A stretch of DNA of 49,955 nucleotides from Planctomycetota bacterium. GTDB lineage: Bacteria > Planctomycetota > UBA1135. The DNA lies in the NCBI GenBank assembly GCA_022447335.1, contig JAKVCF010000001.1, positions 1 through 49,955 of the forward strand, read 5' to 3'. The translations under genes and the position numbers were made by a program. Under the pieces are notes generated by a model. That model was not told the DNA's origin. It did no database searches and saw only the letters and a list, made by a program, of their open reading frames with translations. This document shows positions 7,386-40,691 of this stretch, piece by piece. Position 1 is the first letter of the stretch. Each line of letters begins with the position of its first letter.

Positions 7386-8921
7386 ATGGCCCAACTGACC
7401 CTCGGGAATTTCCTGTCTGAGGAAACTCTGCTTGCCGTTGCCGACGGCCAAGCGCTGCGACTCAGATTTGGCCGCGAGGCCCAGGTGCGAGTGCGTGCGG
7501 CACGCGCGACAGTGGAGTCGATTGTGAAGAGCGGTCGGCCGGTTTACGGAGTGAATACGGGATTTGGCGCACTCGCTAATCATTCGATTGACGCAGCCAA
7601 TACGGGCGTTCTGCAGCGGAATTTGCTGCTCTCACACGCAGTGGGCTGCGGCGATGATATGCGGCCCGAAGAGAAGCGATTAGCCTTGCTTTTGCGCATC
7701 CAGTCCATGTGCCAGGGAGTTAGTGGCGTGCGCCCGGAAGTCGTTCGCTGGCTCATGCGCTTGTATGAATCGGGGTGGTTGCCGCGCGTTCCTGAACAAG
7801 GCTCAGTAGGAGCGTGCGGTGATTTAGCGCCGCTTGCGCACTTGGCCCTACCGCTGGTTGGCGCCGGCGAGATGGTTTCGCCTGAGGGTAAGCAGATGTC
7901 CGCAGCTCGTGCACTCAAAAAAATCGGGCTTGAGCCGATGGGACTTACTGCGAAGGAGGGGTTGGCATTAATTAATGGAGTGCAGATCTCGAATGCGATC
8001 GGTATTGGTGCGCTCGCACGCCTGCGCAAGCTTTCGGCAAGTGCCGACGTTGCGGGCGCACTGTCGGTTGAAGGTTTGATGGGTAGTCATCGCCCATTTG
8101 ATTCCCGCGTGGTTAAGGTTCGCCCGCACCCAGGTGCAGGCGCGACAGCATCCAATCTTCGCAAGCTGTTGCGCGGTTCGCAGGTCGCCAAGTCGCATGC
8201 GCAATGTGAGCGTGTGCAAGATCCATATAGTTTTCGCTGCATGCCGCAGGTACACGGTGCGGCCAAAGATGTAGTCGCTCATTTGGCAGACGTTCTCGTG
8301 CGTGAAGCCAACGCGGCGACGGATAATCCACTCATCTTCCCAGACCGTGGCGACACTATTTCAGCAGGGAATTTCCATGGCCAGCCAATCGCTTTGCCCT
8401 TGGATTACGCAGCGAATGCCTGCTGCAGTTGGGGTAACATTAGTGAGCGGCGTACGAGCGAGTTGATTCATCCCGCGATGTCAGGGTTGCCAGCCTTTCT
8501 TACTCCGGAGCCTGGATTGAATTCAGGTCTTATGATTCCACAGGTCGTTGCAGCGGCGCTGATTAGCGAAAATAAGGTCCTTGCTCATCCCGCGAGCGCT
8601 GATTCAGTGACGACTTCAGCTGACCAAGAGGATCACGTGTCTATGGCGAATCACGCCGCGCGCAAGCTGCGCCAGGCGGCGCAAAATACCGAGCGAGTTA
8701 TTGCTATCGAGTTTTACACCGCGGCGCAGGCGCGAGAGTTCCACCTTGAATTGCGTGCTGGCAAGGGGGCGCAGGCGGCTTACGATCGATTGCGTGCCGA
8801 CATTCCGGCGTTGCGCCAGGACCGTTATATGGGCGCTGAGATCGACCATGTGCACGACTTGGTCGCGCAAGGGGAGTTAGTGTCAGCGGCGGAAGCAGTC
8901 GTTGGCAAGCTAGAACGCTAA
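7386..8921 (+). CDS. hutH: Histidine ammonia-lyase
   Basis: Full-length match to the HAL pattern: YGVNTGFGALA, LQRNLLLSHAVG (the Ser-His pair typical of HAL rather than PAL/TAL), GSVGACGDLAPLAHL (MIO region), NFHG and QEDHVSM. Confidence 0.9.
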   Translation: MAQLTLGNFLSEETLLAVADGQALRLRFGREAQVRVRAARATVESIVKSGRPVYGVNTGFGALANHSIDAANTGVLQRNLLLSHAVGCGDDMRPEEKRLALLLRIQSMCQGVSGVRPEVVRWLMRLYESGWLPRVPEQGSVGACGDLAPLAHLALPLVGAGEMVSPEGKQMSAARALKKIGLEPMGLTAKEGLALINGVQISNAIGIGALARLRKLSASADVAGALSVEGLMGSHRPFDSRVVKVRPHPGAGATASNLRKLLRGSQVAKSHAQCERVQDPYSFRCMPQVHGAAKDVVAHLADVLVREANAATDNPLIFPDRGDTISAGNFHGQPIALPLDYAANACCSWGNISERRTSELIHPAMSGLPAFLTPEPGLNSGLMIPQVVAAALISENKVLAHPASADSVTTSADQEDHVSMANHAARKLRQAAQNTERVIAIEFYTAAQAREFHLELRAGKGAQAAYDRLRADIPALRQDRYMGAEIDHVHDLVAQGELVSAAEAVVGKLER

Positions 8922-11834: not shown

Positions 11835-13520
11835 ATGCCAGTGACCGAACAGGATCTTCTGAAGATTACCCCTGGCGCTCAACAGGCGCCGCATGGCAGC
11901 GAATTGCACTGCAAAGACTGGCACGCCGAAGCGGCCTTGCGCATGTTCCTGAATAACCTCGATGCCGAGGTGGCGGAGCGACCGGAGGATCTCGTTGTGT
12001 ACGGCGGCACCGGTAAAGCAGCGCGTGACTGGGAGTCGGCGCAGAAGATTGTGCACACACTGCAGCGGCTCGAGAGCGACGAGACCATGCTGGTGCAATC
12101 GGGCAAGCCGGTTGCCGTGTTTCGCACGCGCCCTGGAGCGCCCAAGGTGCTGATCGCGAACAGCAACCTAGTCGGCAAATGGGCGACCTGGGAGCATTTC
12201 CGCGAGCTCGAGCGCCAAGGGTTGATGATGTACGGCCAGATGACAGCCGGCTCATGGATCTACATCGGCACGCAGGGCATTCTGCAAGGCACCTACGAGA
12301 CCTTTGCGTCCGCAGCGACCAAGAGTTTTGGCGGAACCTTGAAAGGCACGCTCTCGGTGACGGCGGGTTGCGGCGGCATGGGGGGCGCGCAGCCGCTGGC
12401 CGTGACGATGAATGAGGGCACTTGTCTGATCGCTGACGTTGAGCAGGCGCGCTTGGACTTTCGCCTGCGCACCAAGTATCTCGATGAAGTGCAACCCAGT
12501 ATCGACGCCGCGATTGCGCGCGCACTGCAGGCCAAAGGGGCAGGAGAAGCCGTCAGCATCGGCGTTTGCTGCAATGCGACCGAGCTCCTGCAGACGCTGA
12601 TCGATCGTGACATCACGCCCGAGCTGCTGACCGACCAAACTAGCGCACACGATCCGCTCGGGGGTTATGTGCCGAACAGAATGAGCTTCGACGAGGCCAC
12701 GGCGCTGCGCAAGCGCGACGCCGAGGCTTATCAGGATCACAGCTTTCGCACCATGGGTGAGCACGTGAAGCTGATGCTCGAGCTGCAGAAGCGCGGCTCG
12801 GAGACCTTTGACTACGGCAACAACCTGCGCGGCTTTGCGCAGGAGCGCGCTGGTGTCGAGAACGCCTTCGACTTCCCCGGCTTTGTGCCCGCGTACATTC
12901 GTCCGCTGTTCTGCGAGGGCATGGGGCCCTTCCGCTGGGCGGCGCTGTCGGGTGATCCGGAAGACATTCGCAAGACCGACGAAGCCATCCTGCGGTTGTT
13001 TCCGCACAAGGAATCACTCTGCCGCTGGATCAAGATGGCCGGCGAGCGCGTGGCTTTCCAGGGCCTACCTTCGCGGATCTGCTGGCTGGGTTACGGCGAG
13101 CGTCATATCGCCGGTCTTGAGTTCAACCGCATGGTGCGAGATGGCGAACTGAGCGCGCCGGTTGCACTAGGTCGTGATCACCTGGACTGCGGTTCTGTGG
13201 CCAGTCCCAACCGCGAAACCGAAGCCATGAAGGATGGCACCGACGCCGTGGCCGACTGGCCGTTGCTCAACGCCATGTTGGCGGTAGCCGGCGGTGCAAG
13301 CTGGGTCAGCCTGCACCACGGGGGTGGAGTGGGCATCGGCTACAGTCAGCACTCGGGCCAAGTCATTTGCTGCGACGGCTCAGCTGAGACCGACGAGCGC
13401 ATTCGCGCCGTGTTGACCAACGACCCCGGCATGGGTGTCGTACGTCACGTCGACGCCGGATACGACGAGGCTTTCACCGCCATGCGCGAGCGCGGCGTGG
13501 ACGTGCCAGGCGTGGAATAG
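11835..13520 (+). CDS. hutU: Urocanate hydratase (urocanase)
   Basis: 561 aa with full-length urocanase pattern: [49 protein letters not shown]-like ([12 protein letters not shown]) and [13 protein letters not shown]. Confidence 0.92.
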
Positions 13521-16153: not shown

Positions 16154-17563
16154 ATGAAGTTTCTCACACTTGCTGCCTTCCTTCTACTGGCCTGCCCTCT
16201 GCTTGCGCAGAACAAGTTAAGGTGGGTGCCCGATGCCGACGTGGCTTTTGAGGCGGCCACCGAAGAAGGGTCTGTCATCTTTGTATCGATCGGATTTGTC
16301 GGCGAGGCGCGTAGCGAGGAGATTCGAAAGAGAGTTTTCGCAGATAAAGCAGTCATAGCTCAGGCTGCGCGAACGATCAACGTGCCCGCTTGGACTTGGG
16401 CGATTGGTGACGAGAGGAGGCTGCCTGACTTCGGGAAGGCGGAGGCGCTCGATCATTCGGCAAATCTCGCGCGTGCGACCAGTGAGTGGATCTCGGTGAA
16501 CGCTCTTGGTACTTTTGCGGCTCCTCAACACCTTTGGTTGAATGGGGCAGGAGAAGTTTTATTGTCGGTGCCGTGGGAGTTAGATGCCGACGAAATGAGT
16601 TGGTGCTTTGATGAGGCGTTGCGCCTGGCAGCCGTGGAGGATCGTCCGGCGCCAACTAAAAAATCTCATCCTCCACGCCGATTACTTTTTGGGGCAGTCA
16701 CCAGCGTGCTTGATGACGATGATCTCGGGCGCGGTCTTACGGATGATGAACTCGAGCCCACGATGAAGCGACTGAAGAGAGGGTACGTGACTGCGCGCAA
16801 TCGTGATGACATCGGCCGCATTATGTTCACAGCAAACGAGGATGGGGCCGAGTTCCTCGGCCAGCAAATAGATATTTGGGCTCTTGGCGGTTCATCGACC
16901 TCCGGGATTATCGACTTTGTCTATGGCCTGATTGGTCTAGTGGCTCCAGTCGAGTTTCTCGAATTGCTGGAGAGCAAAGTTGGTTCACCGCGAGCGAGTT
17001 TGCGTGCGATCATTGCGGTCGGATACGAGCAAATAGGTCATCCGGATGGTTTAAAGGCAGTTAAGAAGGCGCTCAAGAGCGAGAAGGATGAGGTTGTCCG
17101 GCCCGAGTGGGTGCGTGCTTTGGGCGCATGTGCCTCGCGCGACAAGTCAGTTGCGAAGCAGCTGATCAAGTTTGCCGAGAGGGATGACAACTCATTGGTG
17201 CAACTGAATGCAGTACTTGCCCTGGGGCACGTACTACCGCAGCCGGATGCGCGTGATTGGCTAATCGAGATGGCCGAAACGGCTATCGGGGAAAGGCAAT
17301 GTGCTGCGGCGTTAGCGCTCGCTTTGGGCCGTGAGCGCAGTGCAATCGATACACTTAAGAAGCTTCGCGGGGAAGTCAAGCTTGAGGCGAGCATTGCGGC
17401 TTTCGATTCCGCAATCAAAGTGCTTGAAGGCGCCAATCTCTTTGAGCTTGAAGATGCTGTACGCGCGATCGATGGAAGCGACTTACCGCGCCCCCGTCTC
17501 TTTTACCGGCCGAAGTTTGACATACCGGAGAGTGGTGAGGAGAGCGGCGAGGGGGAAGGCTAG
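16154..17563 (+). CDS. Secreted protein: thioredoxin-fold-like N-terminus lacking CxxC, plus C-terminal HEAT/armadillo-like repeats
   Basis: Signal peptide MKFLTLAAFLLLACPLLAQ. C-terminal repeated helical units (RAIIAVGYEQIGHPDGLKAVKKAL..., VQLNAVLALGHVLPQPDARDWL..., RQCAAALALALGRERSAIDTL). The domain calls are tentative. Confidence 0.45.
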   Translation: MKFLTLAAFLLLACPLLAQNKLRWVPDADVAFEAATEEGSVIFVSIGFVGEARSEEIRKRVFADKAVIAQAARTINVPAWTWAIGDERRLPDFGKAEALDHSANLARATSEWISVNALGTFAAPQHLWLNGAGEVLLSVPWELDADEMSWCFDEALRLAAVEDRPAPTKKSHPPRRLLFGAVTSVLDDDDLGRGLTDDELEPTMKRLKRGYVTARNRDDIGRIMFTANEDGAEFLGQQIDIWALGGSSTSGIIDFVYGLIGLVAPVEFLELLESKVGSPRASLRAIIAVGYEQIGHPDGLKAVKKALKSEKDEVVRPEWVRALGACASRDKSVAKQLIKFAERDDNSLVQLNAVLALGHVLPQPDARDWLIEMAETAIGERQCAAALALALGRERSAIDTLKKLRGEVKLEASIAAFDSAIKVLEGANLFELEDAVRAIDGSDLPRPRLFYRPKFDIPESGEESGEGEG

Positions 17564-19188
17564 CCGTCGTTTTCGGTTTCGAGCTTCGCTAAGAACTTGG
17601 CGGGGTTGGCTTGAAAGGTTTTCGGGCAGTTTGGGCAGCAGAAGCCGATGACCTTTCCATCGTGCAGCAGGTTGAATTGTGGATCAATCACATTGCCGCT
17701 GACGAGGCAGATGCTGTTGACGGGATTTTGTGTAGTGAGCGAGTTGGTTTCCGGGTCGAGGGCCGGGTCGACTTGCGAGGCATCATTGGTGAGCTTTGGT
17801 GTTTCTTCAGTCTCGAGTGCGACTGATATGCCGACGTCGCCGGCATCGATGTGCACCTCTGGCATAGCTTTGCGTAGAGTGGCCAGGCCCTCGGTGGTTA
17901 TGCCAGCATCCCAAATCCAAAGTCGCTCGAGCGCGGGCAGTTGCCCGAGCGTTTCGATCACAGCGTCGTTCAGATGCGTGCGACTAACGATCAGTTCACG
18001 TAGATGATCATGGCCGGCGAGGTAGGCCAGGCCAGAGGTAGTCACTCGCGTTTCGCGCAGGTCGAGGCGTACCAGGGCGGGTATAGTCGAAATTATTTCA
18101 ACGCTTGCATCGGTGATCTGCGTGCGCGCAAGCGAGAGATCGCTAATCCATTTGATGGTCGGGGTGATTAGCTCAAGCACTATGGCGTCATCAGTTGTAT
18201 TTGCGGGGGCGGCAAAGTCGACCCAAAGCATTTTGGATCCAACTTCGACGGGCTGTACGTGCACCAGATGCTTACGCATGGCCGACAGCGCGGCTTCAGG
18301 GGCGGCGTGCGCGGCACTCTCTTCTTCTGGATCAGTTGCGCCTTCACTTTCATTTGCCGGGTTAGTCGGCAGTGGCAATTTGGCGCCTTCAGCGAGCTCG
18401 AACTCGTTTTCGAAGGGTGCGCCGGCAGCAAGCCAGGCGCGTATCAGTTGAATTTCTAGCTCGCTCGGCTGGGCCTTGTGGTCCGGCGGCATGTGATCGT
18501 CGTCATCGATCGGGAGTAGTATGCGATGAAGCAGTTCCTGATCTTCCGGTGAGATGCCGGTTTCGATGGCTGGGCCGCCATCGCCGCCCGCAAGCAATGC
18601 CTCCGGAGAGTCCGTCCGTAGGCCGCCTTTGACTTTGCGATCACCGTGGCACATGTTGCATTTCGCCTCAAAGAAGTGCTGAATGTGCAACTCGTAGCTG
18701 GCCAGGATCAGGCTGCCTCCCTCTGGGGTAGTCTGATTGGCCGACATCGATTCCTTAGGTTCGACCAGTGGCTTGAACAGGAAGCCTTTGCCGTGAGTCA
18801 TTTCGGCGCCGAAGTGACCTGTCGGAATCATGACGATCACCGTCAGGGCCAAAGCCCAACGGTACATCGTTCGTGCGCCAAATATGCGCAGTAGGAAGAC
18901 TACGATGCTACATGCTGCAGTAGCTATGCCGAGCTGCTCATGTAGTTTGAGTACTTCACTCGCGCTGTAGCTGGGATCGTTGTGTAGCACAACTCCGCTC
19001 GCTGCAGCCAGGCATGCAGAAACGCTTGCGAAAAAGACGAGGAATGCCGGCGCCACTGGCTGGCGCCGTAACGTGTTGACGCACTCCAGCATCACCAGGC
19101 CAATCAGTATGCCGATGGGTAGGTGCAGAATCAGCGGGTGCATTCGGCCAAAGACCGAAAGTAGTTCAGAAGCGGAATCGATTGGCAT
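17560..19188 (-). CDS. Membrane-anchored c-type cytochrome domain (PSCyt-type) / leucine-rich-repeat / C-terminal YHS-like domain protein
   Basis: N-terminal multi-TM region. CNMCH heme-c motif at 18646..18660 within FFEAKCNMCHGDRKVKGGLRTDS. LRR units (LSLARTQITDASVE..., LDLRETRVTTSGLAYL..., LIVSRTHLNDAVIETL...). C-terminal ICLVSGNVIDPQFNLLHDGKVIGFCCPNCPKTFQANPAKF resembles YHS/TRASH metal-binding domains. Confidence 0.65.
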   Translation of the reverse strand: MPIDSASELLSVFGRMHPLILHLPIGILIGLVMLECVNTLRRQPVAPAFLVFFASVSACLAAASGVVLHNDPSYSASEVLKLHEQLGIATAACSIVVFLLRIFGARTMYRWALALTVIVMIPTGHFGAEMTHGKGFLFKPLVEPKESMSANQTTPEGGSLILASYELHIQHFFEAKCNMCHGDRKVKGGLRTDSPEALLAGGDGGPAIETGISPEDQELLHRILLPIDDDDHMPPDHKAQPSELEIQLIRAWLAAGAPFENEFELAEGAKLPLPTNPANESEGATDPEEESAAHAAPEAALSAMRKHLVHVQPVEVGSKMLWVDFAAPANTTDDAIVLELITPTIKWISDLSLARTQITDASVEIISTIPALVRLDLRETRVTTSGLAYLAGHDHLRELIVSRTHLNDAVIETLGQLPALERLWIWDAGITTEGLATLRKAMPEVHIDAGDVGISVALETEETPKLTNDASQVDPALDPETNSLTTQNPVNSICLVSGNVIDPQFNLLHDGKVIGFCCPNCPKTFQANPAKFLAKLETENDG

Positions 19189-29126: not shown

Positions 29127-29975
29127 CTACTTGACTGCGAGAACGTTGGTAGTCAAGCAGTTTGAGGTGTCGACTGCTTGGCCCCAGACAGCTCCGCAGA
29201 CTGCGGAAGGCACGAAAAAGGACAGGCTCGCGTTGCCGTTCGCATCGGCTGACGCGAAGCCTCCAACGCGTGCCGTTGAGTTCAGCCCGAGTTGAATCCC
29301 GGCGCAACGCCCACCGGGCACGACGTAGTTTCCGATTCCTCGCGCCCAAGCGAATGCGACTAGCTCGCCCGGTGTCATGCCGCTGACCAAGAAAGTCATC
29401 GAGCTCCCACAGTCCCCAACTTTGGTTAGCGATGGGCCGGTGAGCATATAGGTGTGAAATCCGATTCGCCACTCGGGCGGGAACGCGCCGCCATTGAGGA
29501 AGAGTGGGGGGTCATATTGCGTGTTTACTGGCGACTCATAACTGCCCGTTCCATTCATGCCGGTGTCAGTGCCGATTACTTGGATGACATAGGGTTCGCC
29601 CGCTCGCATCTGGATGTTTGCCGAGGTCACGTTGATCCAGGCGATCTCCGTGTTGCTCGTGCTCTTGGAATAGTTTCCGGTCCATACAGGAGTACTGGTC
29701 TGCCACGCGCTTCCAAGAAGAATGGCAAGCTTGATGGTGGATCCCGCCGATCCAGTCAGTTCAAGCTCAAATCCTTCGAGCTGACCATCAAAGCCAGCAA
29801 GAGTTTCGGCTTGCCAAGTGAGGCTGCTCGTACTGAAGTTGTAGGACGCACCCTGTGCACTGGTGCCTGCAGTCTCGCTGGAGAAGGGAGAAAGTTGGTC
29901 CAGGGAGCCAGTCTGAGCTTCCAGGGAAGGGGCGAGGATTAGCGCGAAGAGGGAGAGGAGGGTAGGGAGGCGCAT
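29127..29975 (-). CDS. Secreted hypothetical protein (Cys-containing C-terminal beta-rich module)
   Basis: Clear signal peptide MRLPTLLSLFALILAPSLEAQ. No recognisable catalytic motif. Ser/Thr/Gly-rich composition. Confidence 0.5.
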   Translation of the reverse strand: MRLPTLLSLFALILAPSLEAQTGSLDQLSPFSSETAGTSAQGASYNFSTSSLTWQAETLAGFDGQLEGFELELTGSAGSTIKLAILLGSAWQTSTPVWTGNYSKSTSNTEIAWINVTSANIQMRAGEPYVIQVIGTDTGMNGTGSYESPVNTQYDPPLFLNGGAFPPEWRIGFHTYMLTGPSLTKVGDCGSSMTFLVSGMTPGELVAFAWARGIGNYVVPGGRCAGIQLGLNSTARVGGFASADANGNASLSFFVPSAVCGAVWGQAVDTSNCLTTNVLAVK

Positions 29976-32244: not shown

Positions 32245-32481
32245 CAGTTCAGCTTATAGGGCAGAGCTTGGAAATAGTTGTGGCCGGCCTTGCAAAGCGA
32301 GATCCTGAAAAACTGTGTGGGCAGGAAGATTTTTGAGAGCACAAGGAAATCGTTTGCACAAGGGCTGAGGGTTTGATGTCTATGGAGTCCTTTTGGGCAA
32401 GCTGGGAGGCCGTGTTACGATGAGGGTTCGCGCTGGACAGATCAGGTCCAAAAATCCGAGTAAGAGAGTGAGTCGCAAGTG

Positions 32482-33816
32482 ATGATCGAGCCAAAGACTT
32501 TTCAGCCCATTTCGGGTCAGAAGCTGCTTGATCTTCCGCAAGTCCGTGCTCTGCCAGCGGATACCCAGTTTGCGATGCGCGTCGTGGCTACAGTTCTCCC
32601 TTTCCGGGTGAACAACCACGTGCTTGAGGAGCTGATTGACTGGTCTAGGGTGCCGGATGATCCGATGTTCCGGTTGGTTTTCCCGCAGCCTGGACAGCTG
32701 GAGCCCCAAGTTTTTGATCGCGTTGCAGAGTTGATCAAAGCTGGGGCCGATGAGGATACGGTCCAGCGCGAGGCCCGAGCGATCCAGACCCAGGATTTGA
32801 ATCCGCACCCGGCAGGGCAGCTGGAGCACAATGTGCCGCTGGTCGACGGGGTCCGCATGGATGGGATTCAGCACAAGTACCGCGAAACGGTGCTGTTTTT
32901 CCCTTCGCAGGGCCAGACCTGCCACGCTTACTGCGGCTATTGTTTCCGCTGGGCGCAGTTCGTCGGCATCGACGAACTTAAGTTCGCGTCGCGCGAGGCC
33001 GAAGGGCTGGCCTCCTATCTACGGGAGCATCCTGAGGTCACCGATGTCCTGTTGACAGGTGGCGACCCCATGGTCATGCGGACGAGGGTGCTTGAGCGTT
33101 ACATTGAGCCCTTGCTAACCCTTGATCATGTGCAGAGCATCCGAATTGGCACGAAAGCACTGGCGTGGTGGCCTTATCGCTTCGTCACCGACAAGGATTC
33201 CGACGATTTAATGCGTCTTTTCGAGCGGGTGCGTGGTGCTGGCAAGCGCATGGCGTTGATGGCTCATGCTAGTCATCCGGTCGAGCTCGAGCCGAAAGTG
33301 GCGCGCGAAGCTGTGCGTCGTATTCAGGACACGGGTGCAGTTATTCGCTGCCAGGCCCCTTTGGTGCGTCATGTTAATGACGACCCAGAAGTTTGGGCAG
33401 ACTTGTGGCGGGAAGAAGTGCGCCTCGGCATGGTGCCGTACTACATGTTCGTCGAGCGTGATACTGGTGCCCGGGCCTACTACCATCTGCCGTTGACGCG
33501 TGCGTTGGAGATCTACCGCGAGGCGCTGCGGCGTACTTCGGGTCTGGCGCGCACGGTGCGCGGGCCGTCGATGTCAGCGGACCCTGGTAAGGTTTGCTTG
33601 GATTCGATTGAGCGTATCGCGGGCGAAGAAGTCTTCGTTCTTCGCTTCTTGCAGAGCCGTAATCCGGATTGGTCGGGACGCACCTTCTTTGCGCGTTACG
33701 ACCCAAGTGCCGCTTGGCTCAATGAGTTGCAGCCGGCCTTTGGCGAGTCGAAGTTTTTCTTCGAAGAATCGGCTAGTGCCGTACAGGCCCAGTCGCGCAT
33801 CGCAGAATCGGTCTAG
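32482..33816 (+). CDS. KamA-family (lysine 2,3-aminomutase-like) radical SAM protein
   Basis: CHAYCGYCFRW (Cx3Cx2C) preceded by RETVLFFPS and followed by the LLTGGDPMV pattern typical of KamA/EpmB-type aminomutases. 444 aa. ATG at 32482, one codon inside the GTG ORF-track start. Confidence 0.8.
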   Translation: MIEPKTFQPISGQKLLDLPQVRALPADTQFAMRVVATVLPFRVNNHVLEELIDWSRVPDDPMFRLVFPQPGQLEPQVFDRVAELIKAGADEDTVQREARAIQTQDLNPHPAGQLEHNVPLVDGVRMDGIQHKYRETVLFFPSQGQTCHAYCGYCFRWAQFVGIDELKFASREAEGLASYLREHPEVTDVLLTGGDPMVMRTRVLERYIEPLLTLDHVQSIRIGTKALAWWPYRFVTDKDSDDLMRLFERVRGAGKRMALMAHASHPVELEPKVAREAVRRIQDTGAVIRCQAPLVRHVNDDPEVWADLWREEVRLGMVPYYMFVERDTGARAYYHLPLTRALEIYREALRRTSGLARTVRGPSMSADPGKVCLDSIERIAGEEVFVLRFLQSRNPDWSGRTFFARYDPSAAWLNELQPAFGESKFFFEESASAVQAQSRIAESV

Positions 33817-33964
33817 ATCGGGTTTATTGCAAGCTTCGCGCGGTAATCGTGCGAAGAGCTACTTGAGTCCAGCGCTTGGTCAGGTTAGAGAAGGTAGAGC
33901 CACAATGGTGGTCACCCCCATGCTCCGCACCTTTCTCTGCCGCGTCTTTCGCGGACGACCCAAG

Positions 33965-34405
33965 ATGATTCAAGTAGGAACTACTGCGCCAGACTTTCGT
34001 GTATTTGATCACGAGGGCAAGGAGCGCACGCTCAGCGAGTTCGCTGGTAAGCGCCTTGTGCTCTGGTTCTATCCCAAAGCTGACACTCCTGGATGAACGA
34101 AGCAAGGCCAAGGATTCCGTGATCGAATCCAAGACTTTGTCGACCGCGATATCGCGGTGTGTGGCGTTTCTCTCGACTCGGTCGAGGATAATCGCGTATT
34201 TGCTGAGAAATTCAGATTTCCCTTTCCGCTCTTGTGTGACACCACGGGTGCTATGAGCATGGCTTACGGGGCTGCTGCGAGTGCTGAAGATCAGTACGCT
34301 TCGCGCTACACATTTGTGATCGACGCGCACGGCCAAGTGCAGGAATCCATAGATACGAAAGATCCTGGCGGCCAAGCTGCGGATCTACTCGATCGACTTA
34401 TTTGA
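33965..34405 (+). CDS. Bcp/AhpC-TSA-family peroxiredoxin with in-frame UGA (predicted selenocysteine) at the peroxidatic position
   Basis: MIQVGTTAPDFRVFDHEGKERTLSEFAGKRLVLWFYPKADTPG-[TGA 34094..34096]-TKQGQGFRDRIQDFVDRDIAVCGVSLDSVEDNRVFAEKFRFPFPLLCDT...IDAHGQV... The two ORF-track pieces (33500..34096 and 34157..34405) are in the same frame, with no other stop between them. The joined length of 146 aa and the position of U (residue 44) match Bcp. The start is uncertain, with in-frame ATGs also at 33905 and 33920. Confidence 0.7.
34103..34139 (+). promoter_or_regulatory. SECIS-like stem-loop downstream of the UGA
   Basis: The upper stem GGATTC (34112..34117) pairs with GAATCC (34125..34130) around the 7-nt loop CGTGATC, which contains GU. 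The lower imperfect stem pairs 34103..34109 with 34133..34139 (C-G, A-U, A-U, G-U, G-C, mismatch, C-G), separated from the upper stem by an AA/AA internal loop. The loop begins 21 nt after the UGA. Confidence 0.5.
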
Positions 34406-34423: not shown

Positions 34424-35533
34424 CTACCTATTGGCTCCGGTCGCGCTGGGCTCAGTCTTTGGGGCGGCGGGGAGACGGCCACGTTGAGTAGGTAGGTCCA
34501 CCTGGGGTCGGAAGAGCGCTTCGGCGCCTCGCTTCTTATTGCCGAGTGCGGCGCGTATAGCTTCTTTCCGGCTACTTTCACTTTCCGGCACACCGTCGAG
34601 GTCAAAGCCGAATTCTTGCACGACGAGTAGGCAGATGAATTGACCGGTTTTGGTTTCGATCGGGATGAATACGTCGCGTCCGGCTAGCCAATGGAAGTCT
34701 TTGTTCTTCTTGAGATAGATCTCATTCATAAGAAGTCCGTCCGGGCGTAAAGACATGCGCACTCGGTTATCTCCGCCGTAGTTGCTGAAGGGGAAGGGGA
34801 GGTCCGACAGAATGCGAAAAATTTGAGCGCGATATCTATCCCCATTCGGTGCGGTCGCTCGCACTCGGCTCTCCGCTGGGATCTCAACAACTTCAAACCG
34901 GTTGCCTGGCTGATCGAAGTAGCTGGAGCAATCGTCTTCAGCGGCAGACCAAGATTCAAGATCGGCGAAGACTAAAGTGGCTGCGCGCAGAACTGTGTCT
35001 TCTCCGCCGCGCTTGCGCCAGAGCTCGGAGCGATCCTTATTGTCTGTGAGCTGCCAATTTGCAAGGTGAAGGATGCCATCATCGTGCATGTTGTTTTGAG
35101 GGGCCCACTTGCGGTGGAATAGGCCGGCATCGCAGAGTAGCTCGTCGAGATTGCGGCGCTCAGACTTACTGAGCCCAGGTAGTTGTTTTTCGCGTTCGTC
35201 GAGTCGCTTGAGTAGGAGTTTGGTGTCGGTGCGGAAAGGGGCTAGCTCGAGGATGAGGTCGGCGAGATAGGTTGGCTCGTGTTTAGGGCCAGGTTTTTGG
35301 CCCGGTGACAGGTTGAGGTCGCGCGTCGCGAACTCTTGGAACCAAGCCACAAGGTCAATGGGGAGGTTGCCCACTTCCTTTTGTGTTGGTATGGGTAAGG
35401 ACCAATCCGGATCGAAGTGCAGTTCGCAGAATTCTTTCCAGCTAACTTCGCGATGGAGAGTTGATGGGCTCGTGTTGTGGTCTACTGAGCCTTGAGTTGC
35501 GAGCAGAAGTAGCAAGCCGGATAGCATCATCAT
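34424..35533 (-). CDS. Secreted hypothetical protein
   Basis: Long ORF with N-terminal signal MMMLSGLLLLLATQGS. No motif recognised. Its codon composition differs by eye from the GC-rich neighbours. Confidence 0.45.
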   Translation of the reverse strand: MMMLSGLLLLLATQGSVDHNTSPSTLHREVSWKEFCELHFDPDWSLPIPTQKEVGNLPIDLVAWFQEFATRDLNLSPGQKPGPKHEPTYLADLILELAPFRTDTKLLLKRLDEREKQLPGLSKSERRNLDELLCDAGLFHRKWAPQNNMHDDGILHLANWQLTDNKDRSELWRKRGGEDTVLRAATLVFADLESWSAAEDDCSSYFDQPGNRFEVVEIPAESRVRATAPNGDRYRAQIFRILSDLPFPFSNYGGDNRVRMSLRPDGLLMNEIYLKKNKDFHWLAGRDVFIPIETKTGQFICLLVVQEFGFDLDGVPESESSRKEAIRAALGNKKRGAEALFRPQVDLPTQRGRLPAAPKTEPSATGANR

Positions 35534-38025: not shown

Positions 38026-39267
38026 ATGACTTGTGTGAGTAGCGTGCGTTTCCTCAGTCTGATGATTTGGGTCCTTGGTTTTACGGCCGAGGCCTGGTCG
38101 CAACAGGGCGCGGATTCCGTAGTCCATACGAACGATAATCTTGTTGTTCAAGAAGGGGGTATCCCTCTGATTTTGAGCGCGCCTCATGGAGGCGCTAGAT
38201 TTCCGAATGAGTGGCAGGTCCGTGCGACGGGGGTCAAGGTTCGCGACACGAACACCTTCGAGATAGCCCTTGCCTTGCGTGATGCAATTCGTCGGCGAGT
38301 TGGCACGCCTCCGCATCTGATTGCCAGTCGGGTGCATCGGCGCCATTTGGACCTTAATAGAGATCGGCAGGATTCGGGAGCTGAACTTGGCAAGGAACAA
38401 CTTCGCCTCTGGCAGGGCTATCACGAGGAGATTGAAAATGCGACACAGGCTGCACTTAAACAAGGAGGGGGTCATGCTCTGCTAATCGATCTTCATGGTC
38501 ATGGTCATGATCATGGTCTGATAGAGCTCGGTTTCGCGATATCTGCGGAGGAGCTTCGGCGCGAGCCCTCTCAGTTAAATGACGAGGATTGGGTGCGGGG
38601 ATCGATGAGTTTAGGGGCGCGCTTAGATGCTTTAGGTTGGAAGTCAGTGCCCAGTCCGGCTCGTCCTGCGCCGAAGATCGGCCAAGCCTATTTCACCGGA
38701 GGTTACACGGTGCGTAGGCACCGTGGGGATGGCCTACGGTCGATTCAGATTGAGCTTCCACCAAAGCCACGCAGGTCAGGGGCAGAAGTTAGGCAGCCTT
38801 TGGTTGAAGGTCTGGCCGACGCCCTCTTGGGGTTGCTAGTGAAGGAGTTCGCTCTCCCTCCTATTCCTTTGGATCCCATGTCTACTCAGGGAGGTGCCCT
38901 TTGGGGGCCAGGTCAGCACCCCTGGTCAGAGCCGAAGTCGCAAAGCTTGAGCCGAGTTGCAAAGGATCTGCCGTGGTTTGTGGGCGTATATGGCATTCCG
39001 ATCTTGGCTGGGCCCGACCTTGTTCAAGAGGAGTTGAGGCAAGGGGCGAGCAAAATCGTGAAGTACCTAGATCAGAACTCCGACCGTTTATTGGACGACG
39101 TGCGATTGGTGGACCGATTGCGCAGTTCTGGTTTTGGGATAGTCCTTTATCGTCGTCATGCTCCTGTGCTCGCTGATACTCGGCCGTGGAATCAGTTGGA
39201 GTTGATCCAGGTGGAGGATCTCGACGCGTGGCTCAGTCGAGGTGCTCTCAATGAGCGACATTATTAA
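38026..39267 (+). CDS. Secreted N-formylglutamate-amidohydrolase (FGase, PF05013-like) family domain protein with about 160-aa C-terminal extension
   Basis: Signal peptide FLSLMIWVLGFTAEAWSQ. LILSAPHGG, SRVHRRHLDLNRD (compare the family S-R-x-x-x-D-x-N-R motif) and ALLIDLHGHG. The assignment is tentative. Confidence 0.45.
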   Translation: MTCVSSVRFLSLMIWVLGFTAEAWSQQGADSVVHTNDNLVVQEGGIPLILSAPHGGARFPNEWQVRATGVKVRDTNTFEIALALRDAIRRRVGTPPHLIASRVHRRHLDLNRDRQDSGAELGKEQLRLWQGYHEEIENATQAALKQGGGHALLIDLHGHGHDHGLIELGFAISAEELRREPSQLNDEDWVRGSMSLGARLDALGWKSVPSPARPAPKIGQAYFTGGYTVRRHRGDGLRSIQIELPPKPRRSGAEVRQPLVEGLADALLGLLVKEFALPPIPLDPMSTQGGALWGPGQHPWSEPKSQSLSRVAKDLPWFVGVYGIPILAGPDLVQEELRQGASKIVKYLDQNSDRLLDDVRLVDRLRSSGFGIVLYRRHAPVLADTRPWNQLELIQVEDLDAWLSRGALNERHY

Positions 39268-39320: not shown

Positions 39321-40691
39321 ATGCAAGTGCGCGATGCGATGAACTCAGGGTTCTTGGTGGCCATGTTTGGTTTGGTGACCCCTTCACTTATTGCTCAAGA
39401 TCCGGCTCCGGTTGTCAAGGAGCCGTCGTCTAAAGATTGGAGGCCCGCTGCTCGCACGGAAGTCGTTGAGCCGCATCGAACGCGAAATCTTGACTTAGAT
39501 GGCAAGGCCCGTGAGCGCAGGCAAGGGGGAAGCCCACGGACAAAGTCTGGGCTGCTCGTATTCGATGGGGCAAACGACGGATATCGTCAGGTCGACCCAC
39601 AGGTTGCAGTCGGTGGTGGGTACGTTTTTACCGGGACTAACTCCGGATTTATTGTCTACTCCAAGGAAGGAGAATATGTCCGGGGCGTGAGGCAGAATGT
39701 TTTCCGAGGAGGAATCGATCCGAAAATATTCTTTGACCCTAACAACCGCGTCTTTGGCTTTGATCTTTGGGTGTACTGGGATGATGCCAAGCAGAAGCCA
39801 GTGCAGATTTCGATGTCTGAGACAGAGGATCCTCGCGCGGCTTGGAATACCTATTCCGTCCCTGCTCCAGGCGGTGTAGACGGCGGTGCGATTGGATGTA
39901 GCAGGGCTTGGGTGGGATATAGCTTCCCAGGGGGAAAGGAGCGCACCTTTGTTTTGCGAAGCGCGGAACTCAAGTCTGGCAAGCCCGCTAAGGTCTGGCA
40001 TTTTGACGGCAGCTTGGGCCATCCAGTGTTGGGGCAGGATCCCGAAGACGCGCTCTATTTCCTGCAGGTGACAGACAAGTCCTTTGTAGTGCGACGCGTT
40101 GTCGAGCGCGATGGGGAGGCTGTTGCCGAAGAGGTGGGGAGTGCCGATCACGGCCTAACCTCGATCGGATTCCCGCCCCCTTCGCCACAGAAGGGGACCG
40201 ATCAACTTACGGCATCGGGAGACCGGAACCCCAAGAACGTTGTCCTGCAAGGGGGCTATCTATGGTTTTCACAGACGGTCCGCCATCAAGGTCGGGCCGC
40301 AGTTCAATGGCATCAAATCCGCAAGGACGGGAGCATCGTTCAGACGGGTCTTCTATCCAGTGAATCCTCTAGTTACATTCAAACTAGTTTGGCAGTGAAT
40401 CGCAATTTGGATGTACTAGTTGGCTTTCAAGAGACAAGTTCGGACATGTTTATTAGCCCTCGCTGCGCCTGGCGCCGCGCTTCGGATTCTCCAGGCACGC
40501 TGCGCGAGATTGTTTCTTTGGGGGAGGGAAAGGGGCCGACGGACGGGAGGTCTTGGGGCGACTACAGCGGAAGCTGCATGGATGGCGACGATGGTCGAAC
40601 CTTATGGACAGTTCAGTCGATTACCTCTAGCGAAGGTAAGGGGCATACGGTGGTTGCACGCGTCGAGTTCCCCGAGGCAGGGGGCGAATAA
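39321..40691 (+). CDS. Secreted hypothetical protein (beta-propeller-like, sialidase-fold-like guess)
   Basis: Signal peptide FLVAMFGLVTPSLIAQ. Beta-rich sequence ending with a RSWGDYSG...DG.TLW motif often seen at propeller blade closures. No catalytic call possible. Confidence 0.4.
   Translation: MQVRDAMNSGFLVAMFGLVTPSLIAQDPAPVVKEPSSKDWRPAARTEVVEPHRTRNLDLDGKARERRQGGSPRTKSGLLVFDGANDGYRQVDPQVAVGGGYVFTGTNSGFIVYSKEGEYVRGVRQNVFRGGIDPKIFFDPNNRVFGFDLWVYWDDAKQKPVQISMSETEDPRAAWNTYSVPAPGGVDGGAIGCSRAWVGYSFPGGKERTFVLRSAELKSGKPAKVWHFDGSLGHPVLGQDPEDALYFLQVTDKSFVVRRVVERDGEAVAEEVGSADHGLTSIGFPPPSPQKGTDQLTASGDRNPKNVVLQGGYLWFSQTVRHQGRAAVQWHQIRKDGSIVQTGLLSSESSSYIQTSLAVNRNLDVLVGFQETSSDMFISPRCAWRRASDSPGTLREIVSLGEGKGPTDGRSWGDYSGSCMDGDDGRTLWTVQSITSSEGKGHTVVARVEFPEAGGE

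Follow-up and report, generated by a model that had tools for sequence, protein, structure and literature searches.

The window considered here, a stretch of 49,955 nucleotides from a planctomycete contig (JAKVCF010000001.1), contains on its forward strand a peroxiredoxin (Prx) gene whose reading frame is interrupted by a single internal stop codon. Positions 33965–34405 translate as one frame of the form MIQVGTTAPDFRVFDHEGKERTLSEFAGKRLVLWFYPKADTPG-stop-TKQGQGFRDRIQDF…LDRLI, in which the stop, flanked by LVLWFYPKADTPG and TKQGQGFRDRIQDF, corresponds to a TGA read directly from the sequence at 34094–34096. Past this codon, the frame remains open until a second TGA at 34403–34405 (+ strand), which translation identifies as the true terminator of the gene. 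The program-made list of open reading frames (ORFs) presents the locus as two pieces, one ending at 34096 and one spanning 34157–34405, both with starts congruent to 2 mod 3. Translation and ORF list thus confirm the original prediction insofar as one common frame runs on to 34405. Judged from the sequence, the locus very probably specifies a single polypeptide of 161 aa (or 146 aa, should translation begin at 33965) with selenocysteine (Sec) at the peroxidatic position, and we are highly confident that it represents a genuine planctomycete selenoprotein gene that has been mis-split into two fragments by automatic annotation. The full coding sequence of this predicted Sec-containing Bcp/PrxQ-like Prx would span 33920–34405 on the forward strand and comprise 161 codons, including Sec codon 59, plus the stop.

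If Cys is assumed at the stop, residues 4–127 of the 146-aa product align to profile positions 1–123 of 124 of the Pfam family AhpC-TSA (PF00578, E 6.2e-33). When the joined protein is aligned with Cys-containing homologues, the column of the stop, located inside the block PKADTPG-C-T, holds Cys in 18 of 18 sequences. Moreover, solved Bcp/PrxQ structures (3drn, 5epf, 5enu, 5iiz) align over the full length with E values down to 5e-22 and have their catalytic position opposite the stop; the Ser that 3drn shows at this position in the alignment is taken to be an engineered mutation. The earlier assignment of the TGA to the codon of the peroxidatic Cys is thereby confirmed. With the UGA at 34094–34096 (+ strand) read as Sec, the motif would be P-K-A-D-T-P-G-U, in line with P-x-x-x-T-x-x-U, the published signature of Sec-peroxiredoxins (PMC13188914).

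The premise that Sec-for-Cys peroxiredoxins are established in bacteria is well borne out by the literature. Such enzymes have been catalogued under COG1225 since 2005, with 43 sequences in the Sargasso Sea, followed by 12 sequences of a Prx selenoprotein family with TxxU in the 2006 census, 253 sequences in GOS, and 91 sequences in 78 organisms in the 2016 genome survey, and a 2022 review defines the Prx selenoprotein family as COG1225 (Bcp). Repeated exchange of Cys and Sec has likewise been published for Prx (2006 census). The window gene therefore adds to an already catalogued selenoprotein family (COG1225/PF00578, TxxU), with which it shares the domain, the motif, the peroxidatic U, the widespread Cys homologues and a hairpin of the Sec insertion sequence (SECIS) type immediately downstream, inside the coding sequence. 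Nothing essential sets it apart, except that its subclade lacks the Cys at position +5 after Sec and has a conserved N-terminal extension of 15 residues.

Regarding the subfamily, the top NCBIfam matches are Bcp (NF006960, 88 bits, cutoff 140) and PrxQ (NF053650, 86 bits, cutoff 260), both below the equivalog cutoffs. On the grounds of sequence comparison, the protein is probably best placed in a Bcp/PrxQ-like subfamily and not with the experimentally proven PrxU type. E. coli Bcp and Deinococcus PrxQ provide the best curated models and structures and share the PKxDTPG-C/U-T block, whereas the window protein has a predicted Sec in place of the catalytic Cys and Gln at +5, besides scoring below these cutoffs. 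PrxU from Eubacterium acidaminophilum is alike in that it carries an experimentally proven Sec at the peroxidatic position, is thioredoxin-dependent and is encoded by a gene with a UGA followed by a SECIS, but it belongs to another Prx subfamily (model NF040737 with a profile of 233 residues; 48.2 bits for the window protein versus a cutoff of 270). A Cys at +5 (U-x4-C, the CxxxxC spacing of Bcp) occurs in 74 of 100 Sec-family members. The window reads U-TKQG-Q, and its subclade has Gln or His at this site, i.e. it is devoid of the usual resolving Cys. This Cys is typical of Bcp/PrxQ enzymes but not universal among them, and since 1-Cys Bcp enzymes exist, its lack is compatible with Bcp/PrxQ membership.

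The original prediction had put the joined product at 146 aa. The single frame and the full AhpC-TSA domain stand, while the length is likely 161 aa, because translation probably starts at ATG 33920, 15 codons upstream of 33965, which would turn ATG 33965 into an internal Met and most likely make Sec residue 59. This shift is based on three observations. Among members of the window's subclade, the 45 nt that precede 33965 are conserved and differ at third positions only, and similarity collapses 5' of ATG 33920. The encoded extension MLRTFLCRVFRGRPK (33920–33964, + strand), which is basic and 15 residues long, is conserved in the subclade DNA alignment, and its motif M-L-R-T/Y-F-L-R-R-L-F…P recurs family-wide as well as in 161-aa Cys homologues (e.g. 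P0009). Finally, some members (L040, L041, L092, L113) have Leu at the site of the 'internal Met'. Basic, MLRTFLRRVFRGRPK-like extensions of 15–17 residues ahead of the canonical Bcp start are found in the window, L001, L003, L004, L027, L047, L079, L098 and most family members; as they have no hydrophobic core, they do not constitute Sec or Tat signal peptides. In another subgroup (L005, L023, L037, L042, L043, L066, L067, L094, L102), the basic extension is replaced by a lipoprotein-type signal peptide with a lipobox Cys upstream of the Sec-Prx core, for example …FLAFLCFAACGAPS… or …LLAVGCGTS…, and these proteins are therefore predicted to be exported, lipid-anchored selenoproteins.

The closest database relatives retrieved by protein search (70–83% identity) are annotated as C-terminal fragments of 82–88 aa. 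On the contigs of the four closest ones, which were found by protein similarity and not by pattern, a 43-aa AhpC-TSA piece lies directly upstream of each fragment, and translation together with DNA alignment shows that all four have TGA at the corresponding codon. A scan with the codon-degenerate pattern T-P-G-TGA-T-K-Q-G-x-G-F-R-D, which has 25 fixed bases and an estimated ~0.001 chance matches in 596 Gb, matched 45 species-representative genomes and 78 metagenome contigs. The genome carriers are mostly metagenome-assembled genomes (MAGs) of Planctomycetota, one of them an Isosphaeraceae MAG (L035), besides which three MAGs are actinobacterial and one belongs to the Thermoanaerobaculia; at least 38 species-level genomes with Sec-Bcp are labelled as planctomycetes. 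The recurrence of the TGA in independent assemblies shows that it is genuine and not a read error.

This distribution bears directly on the possibility of a nonsense pseudogene, in which conversion of TGC or TGT into TGA would have killed a Cys-type Bcp gene and left the downstream frame as a decaying remnant. A single substitution (TGC to TGA) would indeed suffice, every public gene caller splits the Prx gene, and no sel genes are present in the window. Against this stands the occurrence of the same TGA in more than 120 independent assemblies at ~45% protein divergence, with neither a second stop nor a frameshift. After the TGA, the frame is open for 99–120 codons in 116 of 116 copies complete at their 3' end, and decayed relatives with frameshifts or extra stops were not encountered among these. 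Furthermore, dN/dS values in the window's subclade lie at 0.05–0.18 on either side of the TGA, the downstream part being represented by codons +16 to +50, and dS ranges from 0.5 to saturation. The downstream part is thus translated, which speaks decisively against a pseudogene, as does the conserved, covarying hairpin after the TGA described below; we consider this explanation exceedingly improbable.

Another alternative would be a naturally split enzyme: an N-terminal peptide of 58 aa (or 43 aa) and an 82-aa protein started at GTG 34157 would assemble non-covalently, and gene callers predict exactly both products in all relatives. This arrangement would leave the 20 codons from the TGA to GTG 34157 without translation, although it is these codons that specify the conserved active-site helix, in which T, R and D are invariant and F is nearly so in the 18 Cys homologues, and their pN is very low. 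In addition, such an assembly would lack the catalytic residue altogether, and the internal start is not conserved, given that the C-terminal piece has 88 aa in L004 and 82 aa in the others. The probability of a split enzyme is therefore practically negligible in comparison with that of a single Sec-containing polypeptide.

The same holds for a reassignment of UGA to a sense codon throughout the genome, as in genetic codes 4 or 25, for which nothing but the in-frame TGA itself could be adduced. Read with the standard code, the window is packed with long ORFs, which reach 1228 aa, and an in-frame TGA scan of the window found no other protein-like frame interrupted by TGA. Because the Prx gene itself terminates in TGA, UGA functions as an ordinary stop outside the SECIS context; in the family, TGA is the terminator in 63 of 116 copies, next to TAG (38) and TAA (15). 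Recoding of the TGA is accordingly local and not a change of the genetic code, TGA being otherwise a stop in the window, and a reassigned code retains next to no probability. GC3 as a measure of coding potential does not tell the frames of this genome apart.

Immediately downstream of the UGA, the RNA can form a bacterial SECIS-like stem-loop inside the coding sequence (34102–34140, + strand), which is supported by the fold, by pairing across the family and by covariation. In the fold of 34094–34160 (MFE -22.2 kcal/mol, z -2.7), the hairpin starts at a distance of 9 nt from the U of the UGA and consists of a lower stem (34102–34107 with 34135–34140), a single pair (34109 with 34133) and an upper stem (34112–34117 with 34125–34130) that is closed by the 7-nt apical loop CGUGAUC (34118–34124), whose first base lies 21 nt after the UGA. 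In numbering from the U of the UGA, the family stem comprises 9 bp (positions 16–24 with 32–40) and the loop occupies positions 25–31, with 80 of the 101 unique sequences of the family sharing the loop exactly; the G at loop position 2, followed by U, is presumed to be the SelB contact. According to the model of bacterial SECIS elements, the loop has to measure 3–9 nt and to carry a G at its first or second position, in most cases with G or U as the next base; the upper stem has to comprise 4–16 bp, and the loop has to lie 16–37 nt after the UGA (PMC13188914). The SECIS check proposed for the region around 34094–34160 thus yielded a hairpin that agrees with this model in every respect, i.e. 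a 7-nt loop beginning with C-G-U, 6 bp (9 bp in most relatives) and a spacing of 21 nt. In the window's subclade, A-A mismatches at 17–39 and 18–38 interrupt the 9-bp family stem and leave the 6-bp upper stem, which is within the published range; these two base pairs were lost because the +5 Cys codon was replaced.

Scored as an explicit structure across 95 distinct sequences, the family hairpin has 89.6% of cells paired, compared to at most 50% in slid controls, a value reached by none of 500 shuffles. Compensatory double changes were observed in 33 cells versus 9.4 ± 2.6 in shuffles (0/500 reach 33), and the covariation score of 0.220 versus 0.135 was likewise unmatched in 500 shuffles. Pair 18–38, for instance, occurs as C-G (52), U-A (17) and G-C (7). 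RNAalifold at default settings returned only a trivial 4-bp hairpin from 101 sequences. Constraint at the nucleotide level is also apparent from codon usage in the 111 unique family sequences, where third positions are near-frozen only at codons +7 to +11 (TTC 111/111, CGT 107/111, GAT 97/111, CGA 106/111, ATC 110/111), with third-position entropies of ~1.3–1.7 bits elsewhere, and from pS, which is 0–0.31 in codons +1 to +15 versus 0.35–1.0 in the flanking gene parts. The peptide does not dictate this conservation, since, of four orthologues that encode Cys and share the GFRDR(I) peptide, three spell it with different synonymous codons (CGC, GAC, CGG, ATT) and have lost the hairpin. The fourth (Cys orthologue P0004, L129:723–1160) carries TGC beside the exact hairpin sequence TTC CGT GAT CGA ATC with 9/9 stem pairs, which suggests a very recent switch from Sec to Cys or from Cys to Sec.

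The hairpin resembles the SECIS of E. coli fdhF, which serves as reference for bacterial SECIS elements, in that both are stem-loops within the coding region, directly 3' of the UGA, that present an apical-loop G-U at a fixed distance. In fdhF, the GU is located at positions 23–24 from the U of the UGA, whereas that of the window hairpin is found at 26–27, 3 nt further; beyond that, there is no sequence similarity, and the 7-nt loop of the window hairpin is accompanied by no evident bulged U. No Rfam SECIS family matched the region, and Rfam is without a general model for bacterial SECIS elements; a snoRNA suggested by a permissive Rfam scan of the region is spurious (E 6.2). Directly 3' of the SECIS, the perfect palindrome CCGCGATATCGCGG at ~34143–34158 forms another hairpin, which is not conserved in relatives and is probably incidental. 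As to carriers outside the Planctomycetota, these comprise L008, L032, L038 and L096 (Acidimicrobiaceae and Actinomycetes MAGs and one related contig) as well as L029 (Thermoanaerobaculia). In the actinobacterial carriers, the same hairpin recurs with compensatory changes (GGGGUUC/GAACCCC), a pattern suggestive of joint transfer of the Sec-Prx gene and its SECIS; L029 carries a different hairpin after the UGA.

Genes for Sec decoding were sought in the window and in the flanking DNA of other carriers. The earlier statement that no sel genes are visible in the window holds, as neither a tRNA nor an Rfam family was detected in it, and Pfam domains of SelA, SelB and SelD are absent from its 39 ORFs. 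ARAGORN found 6 ordinary tRNAs and no tRNA-Sec on 128 carrier sequences, and SelA, SelB or SelD motifs were absent from ~800 kb of flanking DNA of other carriers, where matches to the G1 motif correspond to IF2 (infB). Likewise, the in-frame TGA scan of the window gave no second selenoprotein gene, and clustering of conserved TGA contexts across the ~800 kb returned only the Prx family and off-frame artefacts. Among planctomycetes, Sec users are listed in the supplement of Peng et al. 2016, namely Gemmata obscuriglobus (3 selenoproteins), Isosphaera pallida (1) and the planctomycete KSU-1 (6).

A further conceivable scenario is SelB-independent read-through, in which the hairpin would stimulate near-cognate or suppressor decoding of the UGA as Cys, Trp or another residue, thus giving an enzyme without selenium. 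The inserted residue cannot be told from sequence alone, the Sec machinery was not found in the window, and Sec and Cys forms interchange readily in the clade (at least ~15 switches when 100 Sec and 111 Cys forms are placed on a crude NJ tree). Nevertheless, the hairpin fits the consensus of SelB-type bacterial SECIS elements in loop size, G position and spacing, the recoded codon coincides exactly with the position of the redox-active Cys, which is a hallmark of Sec/Cys pairs, and Bcp-type Prx with TxxU are already an established selenoprotein family. To our knowledge, there is no comparable bacterial class in which a hairpin drives UGA read-through at catalytic Cys sites. Decoding without SelB is hence regarded as very unlikely.

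The prediction of a selenoprotein is thus supported by the position of the UGA, by its conservation in intact frames, by purifying selection on both sides and by the covarying SECIS-like hairpin, all of which, like the frame and the homology, are direct observations; each of its testable predictions at the sequence level was borne out. For SelB binding, the actual insertion of selenium and the recycling route, we infer the following mechanism. The hairpin at 34102–34140 in the mRNA would recruit SelB-GTP with Sec-tRNA(Sec) via its apical loop CGUGAUC, upon which the UGA at 34094–34096 would be decoded as Sec instead of stop. The selenolate in the PxxxTxxU pocket could then attack peroxides to give a selenenic acid. 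In most family members, the Cys located five residues after Sec (U-TKQG-C) may form an intramolecular selenenylsulfide that would be reduced by thioredoxin. For the window's subclade with Gln or His at +5, the simplest inference is that it probably works as a '1-Sec' enzyme, which would be recycled directly by an external thiol reductant.

To specialists, the window gene will come as no surprise, and it leaves the understanding of selenoproteins and recoding unchanged. Its relevance rather lies in annotation, as every annotation pipeline sampled reports the Prx gene as two meaningless fragments (43 aa and 82–88 aa), and the antioxidant capacity and selenium dependence of planctomycetes are consequently under-counted in catalogues. 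The signature TGA ACN AAR CAR GGN NNN GGN TTC CGT GAT CGA ATC would allow more than 100 public sequences to be re-annotated in a simple manner and would flag Sec-using Planctomycetota. In the selenoprotein survey literature examined, Planctomycetota are not discussed as carriers of Sec-Prx, and the 2016 survey contains only three Sec-using planctomycete genomes. We tentatively propose, as a quite possible reading that we would not yet favour, that Sec-Bcp is a signature selenoprotein of much of the uncultured Planctomycetota, that gene and SECIS moved as a unit into Acidimicrobiia/Actinomycetes, and that the window's subclade represents a '1-Sec' variant that has lost the resolving Cys along with two SECIS pairs. 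If true, selenium use in Planctomycetota would be much more widespread than recorded.

The genomic neighbourhood offers several additional observations. The window contains two pairs of PSCyt1-PSCyt2-PSD1 and DUF1501 genes (20726–24412/19194–20711 on the reverse strand and 41735–44707/44704–46107 on the forward strand), as well as an extra PSCyt1 protein (17560–19188, reverse strand), all of them hallmarks of planctomycetes that fix the taxonomic origin of the window. Immediately upstream of the Sec-Prx gene, 32479–33816 (+) encodes a divergent, KamA-family radical-SAM aminomutase-like protein with a CHAYCGYC motif (TIGR00238, 136 bits, cutoff 199; no Pfam match at 1e-5). L001 and L002 share the synteny of this gene, with an inserted response-regulator gene separating it from the Prx gene there. 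The ORFs 34424–35533 (-), 39321–40691 (+) and 29127–29975 (-), with 282–456 aa, match neither Pfam nor NCBIfam; the 369-aa one of these three, convergent with the Prx gene, has a conserved counterpart of 366 aa in both L001 and L002. Histidine-utilisation genes are scattered over 7386–8921 (+), 11835–13520 (+) and 38026–39267 (+), their products being an aromatic amino-acid (histidine) ammonia-lyase, a urocanase and an N-formylglutamate amidohydrolase-like protein. The neighbourhood of the window's subclade differs from that of 17 other loci (L009, L010, L011, L017–L019, L022, L026, L045, L053, L075, L080, L083, L091, L107, L122, L123), in which infB (IF2) is located ~2 kb from the Sec-Prx gene.
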